Positions 2,268-6,219 of a stretch of 6,219 nucleotides of DNA are shown here, one piece after another; within the stretch, counting starts at the first letter, position 1; every line of letters starts with the position of its first letter. The notes beneath the pieces are model-generated. The model worked only from the letters and a program-made list of their open reading frames with translations, was not told the DNA's origin and ran no database searches. The translations under genes and the position numbers were made by a program. Source of the DNA: a virus (Duplodnaviria > Heunggongvirae > Uroviricota > Caudoviricetes); the IMG/VR virus record IMGVR_UViG_2740892369_000021; one strand, written 5' to 3'.

Positions 2268-2359
2268 CCTTTCAGAAAATTGAGCCTGTCTCACAGAAAA
2301 GCCGCCCCGAGATGGTCGCCACCATATACGACAGTTCTCAGGCTCAACTTTCTGAAAGG
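2268..2359. promoter_or_regulatory. Long inverted repeat: 21-bp arms (2268-2288 and 2339-2359, 20/21 complementary) around a 50-bp spacer; 3' arm of the minus-strand RNA contains the Rha gene Shine-Dalgarno
   Basis: Arm 1 CCTTTCAGAAAATTGAGCCTG; reverse complement of arm 2 is CCTTTCAGAAAGTTGAGCCTG. On the minus transcript the stem ends 9 nt before the Rha ATG and includes GAAAGG. Confidence 0.6.
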
Positions 2360-2369
2360 CTCGGGGATG

Positions 2370-2391
2370 TGATATGCGCGTGAGATGCGCG
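2370..2391. repeat. Tandem 11-bp direct repeat x2 (TGATATGCGCG / TGAGATGCGCG)
   Basis: Read directly; sits between the Rz terminator and the Rha-gene inverted repeat. Confidence 0.6.
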
Positions 2392-2407
2392 ATGAAATTC
2401 AGATATG

Positions 2408-2430
2408 AAAAAGCCAGCGATTAAGCTGGC
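2408..2430 (-). terminator. Intrinsic terminator 4 nt after Rz stop
   Basis: Minus strand: GCCAGC-ttaatc-GCTGGC (perfect 6-bp stem) followed by TTTTTCAT. Confidence 0.55.
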
Positions 2431-2434
2431 TCTG

Positions 2435-2893
2435 TTAATTCAGGCACTGAGTGCGGATATATTCCTGCGCCCCTTCCAGTTGCTTCTGCATTGTCATCAA
2501 CCGCTCTCTGAGGGTGAAATAATCCCGTTCAGCGGTGTCTGCCAGTCGGGGGCCGGTTGCATTATCCATTCCGGAGGTGCCGGTGGCTTCACGCACGGTA
2601 CCGGAGCAGGTGGCGTTGATCCGCAGGCGCTTACGACCAGCGGCAACATCAGCACGCAGAGTTTCATTTTCAGCTCTCGCATCGGCTAATTCCCTTGAGT
2701 ATCTGGCATCAAGCGCAGCAACATCACGCTGGCGCTGCTGCATGTCAGTAATGGTTGCGTTTGCCAGCTCCAGCTCTCTGGCTTTTTTATCGCGCTGCGC
2801 TTTGTAGGTGATGGCGTTATCACGGTAATGGTCTGTTGCCAGCCACAGCGCACTACAGACCACCAGCAGAATAACGGTAAACGCGGAAAGCAT
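2435..2893 (-). CDS. Rz: Rz i-spanin (inner-membrane spanin subunit), 152 aa
   Basis: MLSAFTVILLVVCSALWLATDHYRDNAITYKAQRDKKARELELANATITDMQQRQRDVAALDARYSRELADA...DTAERDYFTLRERLMTMQKQLEGAQEYIRTQCLN closely parallels lambda Rz (AVNHYRDNAITYKAQRD..., PRLADTAERDYFTLRERLITMQKQLEG). Start placed at ATG 2893, not the ORF-track start at 3001. Confidence 0.9.
   Translation of the reverse strand: MLSAFTVILLVVCSALWLATDHYRDNAITYKAQRDKKARELELANATITDMQQRQRDVAALDARYSRELADARAENETLRADVAAGRKRLRINATCSGTVREATGTSGMDNATGPRLADTAERDYFTLRERLMTMQKQLEGAQEYIRTQCLN
2497..2682 (-). CDS. Rz1: Rz1 o-spanin (outer-membrane lipoprotein), embedded in Rz in another frame
   Basis: MRELKMKLCVLMLPLVVSACGSTPPAPVPCVKPPAPPEWIMQPAPDWQTPLNGIISPSESG parallels lambda Rz1 (lipobox, Pro-rich, ...CVKPPPPPAWIMQPPPDWQTPLNGIISPSERG). 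Confidence 0.85.
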   Translation of the reverse strand: MRELKMKLCVLMLPLVVSACGSTPPAPVPCVKPPAPPEWIMQPAPDWQTPLNGIISPSESG

Positions 2894-2904
2894 TCGGTTT
2901 ATGC

Positions 2905-3036
2905 TCACCCCACCAGCCCTGCCGAAGTCAACGCCATCCAGGTTATGGAAAGAAAAAGAGCAACCAGCATTAGTGAAAATGAAATACCGACGATTACACA
3001 AAGGCCCTTCGCCAGCATTATGAGTTTGTCTGACAT
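2905..3036 (-). CDS. Small hydrophobic ORF, 43 aa (MSDKLIMLAKGLCVIVGISFSLMLVALFLSITWMALTSAGLVG), predicted membrane peptide
   Basis: Below the ORF-track size cutoff; found by hand translation. Strong SD AAGAGG 5 nt before ATG 3036. Start lies 2 nt after the stop of the preceding mini-ORF; stop lies 11 nt before the Rz ATG. Confidence 0.35.
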   Translation of the reverse strand: MSDKLIMLAKGLCVIVGISFSLMLVALFLSITWMALTSAGLVG

Positions 3037-3038
3037 CT

Positions 3039-3128
3039 TTACCTCTTAATAGCAGTAATTAACCGGGCAACCACCCATAAAAACGGAATCAGCCAGACCA
3101 GCAAAAATTTCCAGTCCATTTTTATCAT
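3039..3128 (-). CDS. Small hydrophobic ORF, 26-29 aa (MIKMDWKFLLVWLIPFLWVVARLITAIKR), predicted single-TM peptide
   Basis: In-frame ATGs at 3128 and 3119 (M-I-K-M). ATG 3128 is 2 nt after the antirepressor TGA stop, so translational coupling is possible. No good SD of its own. Confidence 0.3.
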   Translation of the reverse strand: MIKMDWKFLLVWLIPFLWVVARLITAIKR

Positions 3129-3130
3129 CT

Positions 3131-3826
3131 TCATGCTGCGGTAGCTCTCCATGCAGCAAGCAGACCAGCAATCCACTGAACACCTTTTGGGGTGAATTTA
3201 ACCTGCGTAAAAGCATGACCATTGCCCGCCTCGCCCGTTTTCACGCTAAACCGCCCCGCATCCAGGTGATGCGAGTAAGGCGTCATTTTTCCAGCGAGGC
3301 GATACATTATTCCGTTCTCCAACAAAAACAGCCGGAAATCGGTTTCTTTGATACCGAGTAACTTAGCAACTTCCCGGAATCCCATCAGACCAGATGCTTC
3401 AACATAGTTATCAACAAATTCAGCCTTCGGCGCTGCTATTGCCAGTTGATTTTCCAGCACTGCTTTCTGTTCAGCCAGTTTTGCCGCAAATCGCAACGCC
3501 TCAGGTAAAGTCCGGGGGATCTGAATACCATGCATCGCTTTGAGTCTTGCCAGCACAGAACGACGAACGGCCTTTGACTCCCTCATGCCAACGAGCATCA
3601 TCTGGTCAAAATCCAGATCATAGTATGCCGTTCTTGTCTGGTTATTGTTTAACCGGAATTTTTTTCCGGTTCCATCAAGCTCTAGCTCATCCTCAATTTT
3701 TGCAAGAAACTTACGCGGTTCATGAGGGACTTCTCCGGCTTCTGCCCGGGCTGGATTAATAATGTTATTCAGAAAATCCAGACTACTCATGGATATTTCA
3801 TGATCGACAGAAATCATCTCTTTCAT
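3131..3826 (-). CDS. Phage antirepressor, KilA-C/ANT-domain protein, inserted between R and Rz
   Basis: C-terminal block FREVAKLLGIKETDFRLFLLENGIMYRLAGKMTPYSHHLDAGRFSVKTGEAGNGHAFTQVKFTPKGVQWIAGLL fits the ANT/KilA-C antirepressor pattern. SD AAGGA 7 nt before ATG 3826. Confidence 0.7.
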   Translation of the reverse strand: MKEMISVDHEISMSSLDFLNNIINPARAEAGEVPHEPRKFLAKIEDELELDGTGKKFRLNNNQTRTAYYDLDFDQMMLVGMRESKAVRRSVLARLKAMHGIQIPRTLPEALRFAAKLAEQKAVLENQLAIAAPKAEFVDNYVEASGLMGFREVAKLLGIKETDFRLFLLENGIMYRLAGKMTPYSHHLDAGRFSVKTGEAGNGHAFTQVKFTPKGVQWIAGLLAAWRATAA

Positions 3827-3960
3827 GGTTGATTCCTTTTAGTGATGAACCCTGCGCACAGGAATAACCAGCCCAAAGAGGGTTAACCAGACCACTGCCG
3901 GTTATCCACCAGGGCTCATCCTGAAAGGTTCTTTGGTTTATTTACGCTTGTGCGAAGCGC

Positions 3961-3989
3961 AGAAATGACAAAGGCACCATTACGGTGCC
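3961..3989 (-). terminator. Intrinsic terminator between R and the antirepressor gene
   Basis: Minus strand: GGCACC-gtaat-GGTGCC (perfect 6-bp stem, extendable) followed by TTTGTCATTTCT. Confidence 0.5.
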
Positions 3990-4099
3990 TCTGCGTGAAA
4001 TAATCTGCCTAACTTTATTCACTTACATTTTGCCAGTTCGCAGGATTTCGTGTTATCCGCCCGCGCTGGCCAACGTCATTTTTCAGCAAAATATTCTGC

Positions 4100-4633
4100 T
4101 TATCTGTCGATTCCCCAGCACGCCAGCGCGCTCTCCTGGTCACGACGGGATACCTGACCATAACAGTTATTTGAGCGAATACGGCAGTCTCTGCCACCGT
4201 CCTTAATCCACCAGCGAATCGCTTCGCAGGCACCTTTTCGATCTCCTGCATTAATTCGTTTATAAAACGTCGACGGGAAACACTTACCTGGGCCAATGTT
4301 GTAAGGACAGAATGACGCAATACCCGCTTTCTGGGGTTCAGTCAGTGGCACTTTGATGTTTTTCTCCACCCATGCCAGCGCCTTATCACGCTCAATGGCG
4401 TTAACCTGGTCGCATTTCCCCTTCGACAGCTTCATGCCAGGAATAACAGGCTTACCATCCACCCGGGTGGCTCCACGGCAGATGGTCCAGATACCCGCAC
4501 CATCACGGTATGCCGTGGTGTGGTTGCCTTCCTTTTCATCCAGAAACTGGTCGAGGATTTCAGGCGCAGAAGCACCTGCGGCAATCAGCGCCAGAACGGC
4601 AGCCGATAAACCATAGCGGAGTTTCCTGCTCAT
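4100..4633 (-). CDS. R: SAR endolysin (T4-type lysozyme, GH24) with N-terminal signal-anchor-release domain
   Basis: N-terminal weakly hydrophobic Ala/Gly-rich segment YGLSAAVLALIAAGASA; catalytic triad spacing E-x8-D-x5-T in EKEGNHTTAYRDGAGIWT; overall likeness to phage 21 R. Starts 4 nt after the S stop. Confidence 0.9.
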   Translation of the reverse strand: MSRKLRYGLSAAVLALIAAGASAPEILDQFLDEKEGNHTTAYRDGAGIWTICRGATRVDGKPVIPGMKLSKGKCDQVNAIERDKALAWVEKNIKVPLTEPQKAGIASFCPYNIGPGKCFPSTFYKRINAGDRKGACEAIRWWIKDGGRDCRIRSNNCYGQVSRRDQESALACWGIDR

Positions 4634-4637
4634 CAGC

Positions 4638-4853
4638 TTACTCTCCCCGTGCCGCCTTACGCCTGTCCTCTCTGATTTTGAAATACAGGTTCGTCAGGTA
4701 CGTCAGCAGACCAAACAGCAGACTCCCCAGCACGCCTATTGCCGCCCACTGAGACGGGGAAACCCTGTCCAGCAACTGCAGGAACCAGTAGCCCGTTCCC
4801 ACCGCTGACGTGGTGTATGACACACCTGTTGTGATTTTTTCCATCTGGTTCAT
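4638..4853 (-). CDS. S: Class II holin / pinholin, S21 type, with dual-start motif (Met1 and Met4)
   Basis: [71 protein letters not shown] is near-identical in its C-terminal two-thirds to phage 21 S (…[51 protein letters not shown]). SD GGAGG 7 nt upstream. Confidence 0.9.
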
Positions 4854-4888
4854 ACCCCGCCTCCCGCAATCCGGAAGCTCACAACATG

Positions 4889-4918
4889 AAAAAGGCCAGC
4901 AGCTGTTTACTGATGGCC
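4889..4918 (-). terminator. Intrinsic terminator upstream of S
   Basis: Minus strand: GGCCATCAG-taaacag-CTGCTGGCC (9-bp stem, one mismatch) followed by TTTTTCATG. Confidence 0.55.
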
Positions 4919-5475: not shown

Positions 5476-5556
5476 GTACGAAAGTATCGTTCCTTTATTT
5501 TTTCTCCATAGGTATCACCACCGCCAGCGTCCATTCCTGTCGCTGGCGGTTTTTTT
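5476..5556 (+). ncRNA. Candidate small RNA of about 80 nt defined by the promoter and terminator pair; antisense to the region upstream of the 59-aa ORF
   Basis: No plus-strand ORF with a start codon lies between promoter and terminator. The terminator is orphan, on the strand opposite to every surrounding gene. Confidence 0.3.
5520..5556 (+). terminator. Strong intrinsic terminator on the plus strand
   Basis: ACCGCCAGCG-tccattcctgt-CGCTGGCGGT (perfect 9-10 bp GC-rich stem) followed by TTTTTTT (5550-5556). On the minus strand the same hairpin has no U-run after it. Confidence 0.65.
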
Positions 5557-5557
5557 A

Positions 5558-6219
5558 TCATGCCGCAGTGTCTGTGCTGTTCACTTCCACCACAATGCTG
5601 TCTATCAGTACCGGGTAAGTCGCATTCCTGGTAATGTCTGTCACATGCAGTTTATCCGCCGCAAATGCACTGACCGGTGACTGCGTCAGCGTGAACGGTG
5701 TGCCATCCTGACCATCAATAACCGGCGTCACCTGAAGGCTGTTATTCCCGGCAAAGCGGAAAGACAGCGTATGCCATTCGTTATCAAATGCGCCAAAGGT
5801 TCCCAGTTTCAGGTTGTTTGTCGCCACTTTCGCATTGTGGTACATCACATTCAGGTCTTTTGCATCTGTCTGGATGTAGAACGCTGCCAGCAGGTTATTC
5901 CCCCCGTCTCCGGTCAGGGCAACGCCCTGTGGCAGTGAAGATACCGGCCAGTAAAACGCCATAACATACTGGTTCGCAGCCAGCGCTCCCGAAACCTTAA
6001 AGCGGCAGCGAATCTGCCCCCCTTTCTGTAACAGAGCCGCACCGTTGCCCGCGGCGTACTCCAGCACCCAGCTGCTTTTACCGGCTTCCTTGGTCAGCTT
6101 CACTGCCTTACCTCCGGTTCCCTCCGCATCGCTGACCACTTCTGCCCTGCCGCCACTGGCTGACCATCCCTGTACTTTCAGGCTTCCCTCTGACTCGCTG
6201 GCAAGGTAAGAGAGCAGTG
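5558..6219 (-). CDS. C-terminal ~220 aa of a larger protein running off the window end; possible beta-sandwich/lectin-like domain of a cargo protein
   Basis: Minus frame is open from 6219 to the TGA at 5558-5560 (the ORF-track start at 6139 is an internal GTG). Sequence ...WHTLSFRFAGNNSLQVTPVIDGQDGTPFTLTQSPVSAF... Its position upstream of S is where Stx-type phages carry a large nanS-p-like esterase; that identity is a guess from position and composition. Confidence 0.6.
   Translation of the reverse strand, partial: LLSYLASESEGSLKVQGWSASGGRAEVVSDAEGTGGKAVKLTKEAGKSSWVLEYAAGNGAALLQKGGQIRCRFKVSGALAANQYVMAFYWPVSSLPQGVALTGDGGNNLLAAFYIQTDAKDLNVMYHNAKVATNNLKLGTFGAFDNEWHTLSFRFAGNNSLQVTPVIDGQDGTPFTLTQSPVSAFAADKLHVTDITRNATYPVLIDSIVVEVNSTDTAA

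Follow-up and report, generated by a model that had tools for sequence, protein, structure and literature searches.

What occupies the short interval between the antirepressor gene (ant) and the spanin gene Rz in the virus record IMGVR_UViG_2740892369_000021 (IMG/VR; Caudoviricetes), and does it take part in lysis? The stretch of 6,219 nucleotides (nt) analysed here, referred to throughout as the window, carries its lysis genes on the minus strand, to which all coordinates below apply unless otherwise stated, and the 237-nt gap between the ant stop codon and the Rz ATG is tiled by two small open reading frames (ORFs). ORF1 (3039-3134) encodes 31 amino acids (aa), MKMIKMDWKFLLVWLIPFLWVVARLITAIKR followed by a stop codon, and ORF2 (2905-3036) encodes a single-helix membrane peptide of 43 aa, MSDKLIMLAKGLCVIVGISFSLMLVALFLSITWMALTSAGLVG, likewise followed by a stop. 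Both ORFs are conserved, encode membrane helices and retain their start codons and Shine-Dalgarno (SD) sites; ORF2 is under purifying selection and ORF1 probably so. Neither is new, since public protein databases and the PHROG collection already contain both, and ribosome profiling has revealed a homologue of ORF2. ORF2 is almost certainly a real gene and ORF1 is probably one also, and we tentatively infer that both are expressed late, are translationally coupled and have a role in lysis.

The original prediction was that two hydrophobic ORFs fill this gap with intervals of 2 nt and 11 nt, and reading of the minus strand confirms the arrangement: 2 nt separate the ant stop from an ATG at 3128, a further 2 nt separate the ORF1 stop from the ORF2 ATG, and the ORF2 stop lies 11 nt from Rz. 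Such packing is not readily obtained by chance, given that two ATG-initiated ORFs covered at least 222 of the 237 nt in only 0.2% of 20,000 simulated first-order Markov versions of the gap (P ~0.002). Both peptides are as hydrophobic as was supposed, the best 19-aa Kyte-Doolittle means being 2.26 for ORF1 and 2.65 for ORF2, and AlphaFold2 models ORF2 as one helix spanning residues 2-38 with a mean predicted local distance difference test score (pLDDT) of 89.8.

ORF2 runs from an ATG at 3036 to a TGA at 2907-2905. Its SD sequence, AAGAGG (3042-3047), is made by the last two codons of ORF1 and stands 5 nt 5' of the ATG, with an anti-SD duplex energy of -7.1 kcal/mol. Each of the 276 phage records matched by tblastn aligns with ORF2 over its full length and without gaps, identities being 63-100%; 933W, Min27, phi191, P27 and many phages that carry the Shiga toxin (Stx) types Stx1a and Stx2a are among them. 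We collected 97 loci, and in all 96 that could be scored the ORF2 frame is uninterrupted and neither its length nor the place of its stop codon varies; these copies comprise 22 protein and 26 nucleotide alleles. The pooled ratio of non-synonymous to synonymous proportions (pN/pS) is 0.50 in its own frame, compared with 0.90 and 1.09 in the other sense frames, and is 0.38 across codons 2-26. When the window is compared with 933W, the 34.2 synonymous sites carry 15.2 differences and the 91.8 non-synonymous sites carry 14.8 (Fisher p = 0.002), and no such difference is seen when the same comparison is made in shifted frames. Frame conservation and synonymous substitution, which had been proposed as a check on both ORFs, thus speak clearly for ORF2.

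The ORF2 ATG and an SD-like site are retained behind three unrelated upstream neighbours, namely ORF1 and its relatives (family A), a second type of mini-ORF (family C, described below) and a P22-type ant. The start context reads ...AAGAGGTAAAG-ATG or AAGGGGTAGCT-ATG where family A precedes it, GAAGGGAGGATTAAGC-ATG where family C does, and GGGGTGGCTA-ATG-ATA when the neighbour is the P22-type ant. Within the peptide, residues K4, I6, C13, V14, I15, G17, S19, F20, L22, M23, V25, W33 and L36 are invariant and concentrated in the membrane core (residues 12-25), which is itself nearly invariant and displays a stripe of small residues at C13-G17-S21. Given this invariant core and the purifying selection, the sequence of the ORF2 peptide probably matters, and the core pattern argues for a specific helix-helix contact with another membrane protein.

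There is independent evidence of expression for a relative of ORF2. The 933W-type homologue is the novel small gene XECs191 of Escherichia coli Sakai (Hücker et al. 2017, PMC5597208), for which RNA at 30.0 reads per kilobase per million (RPKM), ribosome footprints at 12.6 RPKM and a coverage of 0.55 were recorded in lysogeny broth (PMC5597208 supplements); the product was predicted to be a one-helix inner-membrane protein and was assigned to the 'real' category by the classifier of that study (PMC5597208). The homologue is also an annotated gene in strain EDL933, where EDL933_1392 adjoins the Rz gene EDL933_1393 (Neuhaus et al. 2016 supplement, PMC4765031). The argument that tight packing indicates real translation is therefore supported for ORF2, where conservation, selection, start and SD sites kept in three contexts and footprints over a homologue all agree, and is weaker for ORF1. 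A chance origin of hydrophobic frames in T-rich DNA, a caveat attached to the original prediction, can be rejected for ORF2 and is unlikely for ORF1.

ORF1 contains three in-frame ATG codons, at 3134, 3128 and 3119, giving products of 31, 29 and 26 aa respectively, and ends with a TAA at 3041-3039. It had been described as an ORF of 26-29 aa with dual starts; those two ATGs do exist, but the best-supported start is the first, because the only credible SD site stands there. This site, GGAGAG (3145-3150), lies inside the 3' end of ant, 10 nt 5' of ATG 3134, and its anti-SD duplex is worth -6.4 kcal/mol, compared with -2.1 and -1.0 kcal/mol at the other two ATGs. ATG 3134 overlaps the ant stop codon as ATGA, so that ORF1 most likely begins MKMIKMDWKF... 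and has 31 aa. The third ATG is lost, through a change of M to T, in 10 of the 30 related loci.

Seven ORF1 alleles occur among the loci collected; their pN/pS is 0.32 in the ORF1 frame, the other frames giving 0.87 and 0.95. When ORF1 is aligned with its counterpart from loci without ant, homology sets in precisely at the Trp codon of the motif (D/N)-W-K-F, and therefore the right-hand recombination junction of the KilAC ant module lies inside the first seven codons of ORF1 (3110-3134). Both versions of this junction provide an in-frame ATG with an SD site, giving MKMIKMDWKF after ant and MISQLPNWKF, preceded by AGGGAG and 9 nt, where ant is absent.

These observations bear on a possibility that is compatible with any explanation of ORF2: that ORF2 alone is a gene and that ORF1 is a decaying or accidental frame created at the edge of the ant module. 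We consider this a real but minor possibility. The position of the junction within codons 1-7 would suit it, as would a premature stop, seven codons early, in 6 of 30 loci, and a selection test, comparing the window with the allele from loci without ant, that gives p = 0.07 on just 14 differences and so is not significant. The match of ORF1 to PHROG 6632 is weak (E = 2.6e-4, residues 7-30 only; the version without ant reaches E = 6e-5), and ORF1 is unannotated in the RefSeq records that we examined. Against this, both versions of the junction carry a start codon and SD site, pN/pS is 0.32 where the other frames give about 0.9, and the frame stays open in relatives whose DNA is approximately 80% identical; no fewer than 848 genomes match the ORF1-ORF2 interval over 80% or more of its extent. 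Several depositors have also labelled ORF1 a membrane protein. The substitution evidence for ORF1 is accordingly divided, with a low ratio on one side and the test result and early stops on the other, and we regard ORF1 as a probable gene.

The claim that the two ORFs are unannotated stands for phage record MT225100.1, which annotates neither, and for ORF1 in the RefSeq records just mentioned, but not generally. ORF2 is RefSeq protein WP_001280922.1, present on at least 1,000 contigs, and matches PHROG 4906 with E = 3.3e-24 (85.7 bits; residues 1-43 on profile positions 7-49 of 49). Database entries identical to the 31-aa ORF1 product are numerous and bear the names 'membrane protein', 'prophage protein' or 'hypothetical protein' (BAI35649.1 and AOM45500.1 are two of them), and ORF1 is annotated in phage PhiR5_1. 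PHROG 4906 and PHROG 6632 are both families without an assigned function. Main-text literature searches by accession number and peptide string found no mention of either ORF, and reviews of Stx-phage lysis cassettes (PMC8136144, PMC10462455) do not mention them.

Of 5,426 complete E. coli genomes, 1,717 contain a match to the ORF1-ORF2 interval, and many of these have more than one copy. A profile search with ORF2 across 1.84 billion representative proteins yielded 27 clusters, all belonging to the same narrow family or to fragments of it, and no distant characterised relative. A scan of one genome per species (GTDB) produced a single ORF2 match, on a 328-bp contig labelled Xanthomonas pisi (NZ_JPLE01000251.1, L020) that carries an E. 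coli ant end together with ORF2 and is probably contamination. All named ORF2 matches are from Escherichia or Shigella, and so far as these searches indicate the family is a narrow one, found almost only in lambdoid prophages of Escherichia. Among the members of an ORF1-like cluster are one entry from Veillonella sp. and an 'acyl-CoA synthetase' of 443 aa, for which contamination or clustering noise is the likely cause.

Comparison of the 97 loci shows that the interval from the endolysin gene to Rz is modular and includes four families of mini-ORF: A (ORF1), B (ORF2), C and D. Family C products have 38-60 aa, end in ...DDISRALAFAIKWVAVGIAVSPMLYGLAKLVIALKS and match PHROGs 1115, 4493 and 3246, while family D has 28 aa, MSAELIRAMAFAIRIVAIAVLVWAIRWW, and matches PHROG 4493 at E = 3.8e-6. 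The commonest order is C-B-Rz (46 of 97 loci), followed by KilAC ant-A-B-Rz as in the window (22), P22-type ant-B-Rz (18), A-B-Rz (6) and A-B accompanied by C and/or D before Rz (5). Spacing is tight throughout the array, with junctions such as TAG-ct-ATG, TGA-ca-GTG and TGA-t-ATG. B is the constant element; in almost every one of the 97 loci it either stands directly before Rz or is parted from it by C or D alone, and its stop codon is 7-11 nt from the Rz start unless C or D intervenes.

Family C may either precede B, in its 60-aa form, or follow it, in a 38-aa form with a GTG start 2 nt past the B stop, and was seen in Escherichia phage records only. Examples of C and D are found in L011 (2166-2380), L014 (1714-1928), L002 (PhiR5_1), and L006, L008, L015 and L016 (~1319-1501). 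Sequence comparison points to a distant relationship between C and D (BLASTP E = 3e-4), and A resembles C over 14 aa at its C-terminus (E = 0.001), although these similarities are hints only; paralogy of B and C was considered and rejected, there being no BLASTP alignment between them.

We compared both ORFs with families of known function. ORF1, ORF2 and the C and D products match nothing in Pfam, NCBIfam or PADLOC, and hit only function-unassigned PHROGs. As regards the antiholin-like role suggested in the original prediction, neither ORF1 nor ORF2 matches a holin PHROG or Pfam family, though the true holin of the window (S, 4638-4853) matches PHROG 9876 and PHROG 20, and both are separate genes approximately 1.5 kb from S rather than extended holin isoforms. 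As spanins, the products fail on length (31 and 43 aa) and on the single helix of ORF2, and show no lipobox cysteine motif and no spanin PHROG match. For a type I toxin there is no toxin family in Pfam or NCBIfam and no Rfam match within 2800-3200, and PADLOC models of defence and exclusion systems did not match the ORFs at E values up to 1. On these comparisons, membership of an antiholin, spanin, type I toxin or known defence family is not supported.

The setting of the ORFs was established by mapping RefSeq annotation from an identical chromosome (L001) on to the window, which over 1.5 kb shows 100% identity to a prophage carried by E. coli O103, O111 and related STEC strains (E. coli that make Shiga toxin), and equally so to phage genome Lys8385Vzw and several Stx1a-converting phages. 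The genes run in the order S, R, ant, the 43-aa ORF2, Rz with Rz1 inside it, and a Rha-family regulator. S (4638-4853) is a class II holin, and in Stx phages this holin is a pinholin of the P21 family (PMC10462455). R (4100-4633) encodes a 177-aa lysozyme-type endolysin (PHROG 7), putatively of the signal-anchor-release (SAR) type given its hydrophobic N-terminus and the description in PMC8136144; Stx-phage cassettes of this type combine a pinholin with a SAR endolysin (PMC8136144, PMC10462455). The antirepressor gene (3131-3826) has a KilAC domain (Pfam PF03374; PHROG 63) and a TGA stop at 3133-3131. The i-spanin gene Rz (2435-2893; Pfam PF03245; PHROG 13) starts at an ATG at 2893, and the nested o-spanin gene Rz1 (2497-2682) is the 'Rz1 family lipoprotein' of RefSeq. 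The Rz frame itself is open in the 5' direction through most of ORF2 (2894-3001), where a TTG at 3001 would give a product of 188 aa, and longer 'Rz' or 'lysis protein' versions starting within this region have been called in several related loci.

Two terminator-like hairpins can be read in the sequence. The first, GGCACCGUAAUGGUGCC with a U-rich tail (3961-3989), lies 3' of R and 5' of the block formed by ant, the mini-ORFs and Rz, and the second, AGCCAGC...GCUGGCU with a U-run (2405-2431), lies directly 3' of the Rz stop; together they bracket the ant-ORF1-ORF2-Rz/Rz1 block. Where ant is absent, the hairpin 3' of R is a stronger one, AAAAACCCCG...CGGGGTTTTGTTTTT. Scanning of the coding strand from 2300 to 4900 revealed no sigma-70-like promoter, and a lone promoter-like site (3574-3601, inside ant) lies on the opposite strand.

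How might these peptides act? Our preferred reading, held tentatively, is that ORF1 and ORF2 are genuine genes of the late operon whose products are inner-membrane helices, coupled in their translation, that tune lysis. The two ORFs would be transcribed with the phage late operon and translated as a coupled chain from ant through ORF1 and ORF2 to Rz, because stops and starts overlap or stand 2 nt apart and each SD site lies in the end of the preceding gene. The ORF2 helix would then bind a membrane component of the cassette, whether the anchor helix of Rz, the pinholin or the endolysin while it is held in the membrane; the i-spanin anchor is the first candidate, because ORF2 is so persistently adjacent to Rz. 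As an accessory modulator, ORF2 would tune the timing or efficiency of lysis or of envelope disruption, and ORF1 may act in a similar way, as a second peptide that is more easily dispensed with.

A second effect is conceivable at the Rz start, since ribosomes finishing ORF2 could be passed to the initiation codon 11 nt 3'. In loci of the window type, Rz has no SD site at the usual distance, and the sole SD-like run, GGGGU, is inside the last codons of ORF2, whose end, GGGGUGA, is kept even where the ORF2 C-terminus varies. Because Rz has no normally spaced SD and this is the only G-rich run, translation of ORF2 probably feeds ribosomes to Rz in these loci. At this junction the ORF2 stop region can be seen to pair with the Rz AUG in a 6-bp hairpin, which is unsupported by fold tests.

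It is a more speculative step, and one that we regard as doubtful, to extend this scheme to the whole endolysin-Rz interval as a new class of accessory lysis regulators, with at least four single-helix families (A, B, C and D) shuffling within a translationally coupled array whose products would bind the helices of pinholin, endolysin or i-spanin and so set lysis timing.

Several observations count against a lysis role for two genuine genes, in addition to the early stops and non-significant selection test of ORF1 described above. The footprint signal over XECs191 is weak and comes from uninduced cultures (PMC5597208), frameshifted copies of ORF2 occur occasionally, and neither ORF resembles any characterised lysis protein in PHROG, Pfam or NCBIfam. 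Among the 4,851 E. coli genomes that match a 1.5-kb ant-to-Rz query, only 1,717 match the mini-ORF interval, and therefore Rz-type cassettes without these mini-ORFs probably exist. The Qin cassette of K-12 has no equivalent between rrrQ and rzpQ, and DLP12 is not known to have such a gap either. The ORF1 and ORF2 peptides are, then, evolutionarily dispensable. In phiSTEC1589-Stx1c both C (a 1-nt deletion causing a frameshift) and D (a 39-nt in-frame deletion) are broken, which suggests that these families too are dispensable; in this complete genome (L010, ~2715-2850) A and B are intact despite the C and D lesions. Finally, in one locus (L018) C and B accompany another kind of holin and a GH108 endolysin, and Rz is absent; any model that depends on a specific partner is weakened by this case. 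This locus, from E. coli Br_190_kylling (1301-2208), combines a 60-aa C and a B-like 44-aa ORF with two holins, the GH108 endolysin and a P27-type terminase, and 3' of its mini-ORFs are a 60-aa ORF with a lipobox-like LLVGC (PHROG 7528) and a 98-aa ORF.

The same locus lends some credence to the view that the ORFs are cargo of the moron type with no connection to lysis, expressed in the lysogen or soon after induction and serving in superinfection exclusion, as a small membrane toxin or in host fitness, their location being an accident of modular insertion. B and C would in that case be free to accompany an unrelated cassette, as they do in L018, and it would be natural for the ant/mini-ORF block to stand behind a terminator-like hairpin in an interval of changing accessory genes that includes two ant types, C and D, and for footprints over XECs191 to appear in uninduced cultures. 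That low footprint level would, however, fit spontaneous induction equally well. Against the cargo view, the coding strand from 2300 to 4900 yielded no sigma-70-like promoter, and there was no antisense RNA or Rfam family, no type I toxin match in Pfam or NCBIfam and no PADLOC defence match; moreover, the ORFs are co-oriented with the late genes and overlap them at stops and starts. We therefore think cargo unlikely.

Less likely again is that the ORFs are translated solely to carry ribosomes from ant to Rz, their peptides having no function. The intervals (an ATGA overlap or 2 nt, then 2 nt and 11 nt), the lack of an SD at the usual distance from the Rz start and the conserved GGGGUGA at the end of ORF2 all fit such a relay. 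It does not account for constraint at the amino acid level, seen in the low pN/pS of codons 2-26 and in a core that is invariant in 22 alleles, nor for loci of the 933W type, in which Rz has a good SD of its own, AAGAGAG, yet ORF2 is retained. In addition, neither junction folds as RNA with greater stability than its shuffled counterparts (z = 0.20 and 0.35). The remaining idea, that the real gene is a 73-aa frame on the plus strand (2828-3049) and ORF2 its mirror image, draws on the lack of any stop within the ORF2 region in any allele and a pN/pS of 0.55, but a low value in one antisense frame is expected as the mirror of selection on the sense frame, and we reject it as scarcely credible given that its extent is not conserved (it is shortened or lacks an ATG in 933W-type and A-B-C-D-type loci, and its 3' end shifts with upstream context), that its start would be antisense inside Rz and that neither SD site nor promoter was identified for it.

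If the mini-ORF array did regulate lysis, it would set the timing of lysis and with it the release of phage and Shiga toxin. The toxin leaves the cell largely through phage lysis, and a peptide that altered lysis timing in Stx phages could affect the output of both. The practical outcome at present is modest, namely that consistent annotation of both ORFs, missing from MT225100.1, is warranted. The conserved place of these ORFs before Rz in Stx phages will be noteworthy to specialists in lysis, if not surprising to them.

Two features elsewhere in the window may be recorded. On the plus strand, 5481-5558 gives a weak full-length match to the small RNA Esr41 of enterohaemorrhagic E. coli (RF02676; 28 bits against a gathering threshold of 102, E = 0.032), ending in a strong terminator-like hairpin, CCGCCAGCG...CGCTGGCGG with a T-run, between genes for DUF1378 and DUF6645 proteins. 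At ~1665-1700, just 3' of the Rha-family gene (1707-2258), there are about three tandem copies of an 11-nt unit, GATACGGCGAC.

With respect to known systems, the ORFs fit a familiar kind, the small accessory membrane proteins of phage lysis and late regions, while resembling no characterised example. Like the type I toxin genes of prophages and chromosomes (Hok/Gef, Ldr, Ibs and TisB) they encode short, very hydrophobic single-helix peptides, but they differ in having no family match, antisense RNA or promoter of their own that we could find, and in being embedded in an operon with overlapping stops and starts. Dual-start genes that encode a holin and its antiholin include S107/S105 of lambda, which starts M-K-M, and S71/S68 of phage 21. 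ORF1 begins M-K-M-I-K-M, and each of its longer versions adds a lysine before the membrane helix as in lambda S; unlike these holins, it matches no holin family and is far shorter, and the multiple starts are missing from versions without ant (MISQLPNWKF). In phage P2, LysA is a membrane protein encoded between the endolysin gene K and the spanin genes lysB and lysC, and affects lysis timing. The mini-ORFs share with it the position between endolysin and spanins and the character of an accessory, non-essential membrane product, a likeness of position only; LysA is much larger and has several membrane helices. The 'releasin' gp25 of phage Mu is a small accessory regulator of a membrane-tethered endolysin (PMC9239132). 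It has in common with ORF2 a small, membrane-anchored accessory product and a cassette with a SAR endolysin, a comparison made by description only, and the setting differs in that ORF2 also occurs beside a GH108 endolysin without a hydrophobic N-terminus.

The closest relatives are the members of the two PHROGs themselves. Deposited entries of PHROG 6632 such as BAI35649.1 and AOM45500.1 are identical to the 31-aa ORF1, and the core WKFLLVW...AIKG/R is common to the versions without ant, although the first seven residues of ORF1 are specific to the KilAC-ant context. Members of the ORF2 family from 933W-type loci are 63-70% identical to ORF2, and their starts lie either one codon (MISDK) or five codons (MGWLMISDK) further 5', in overlap with an ant of another type. 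PHROG 4906, WP_001280922.1, EDL933_1392 and XECs191, at 43-48 aa, belong with ORF2 to a single family, having the same length, the same position 5' of Rz and the same single predicted inner-membrane helix.

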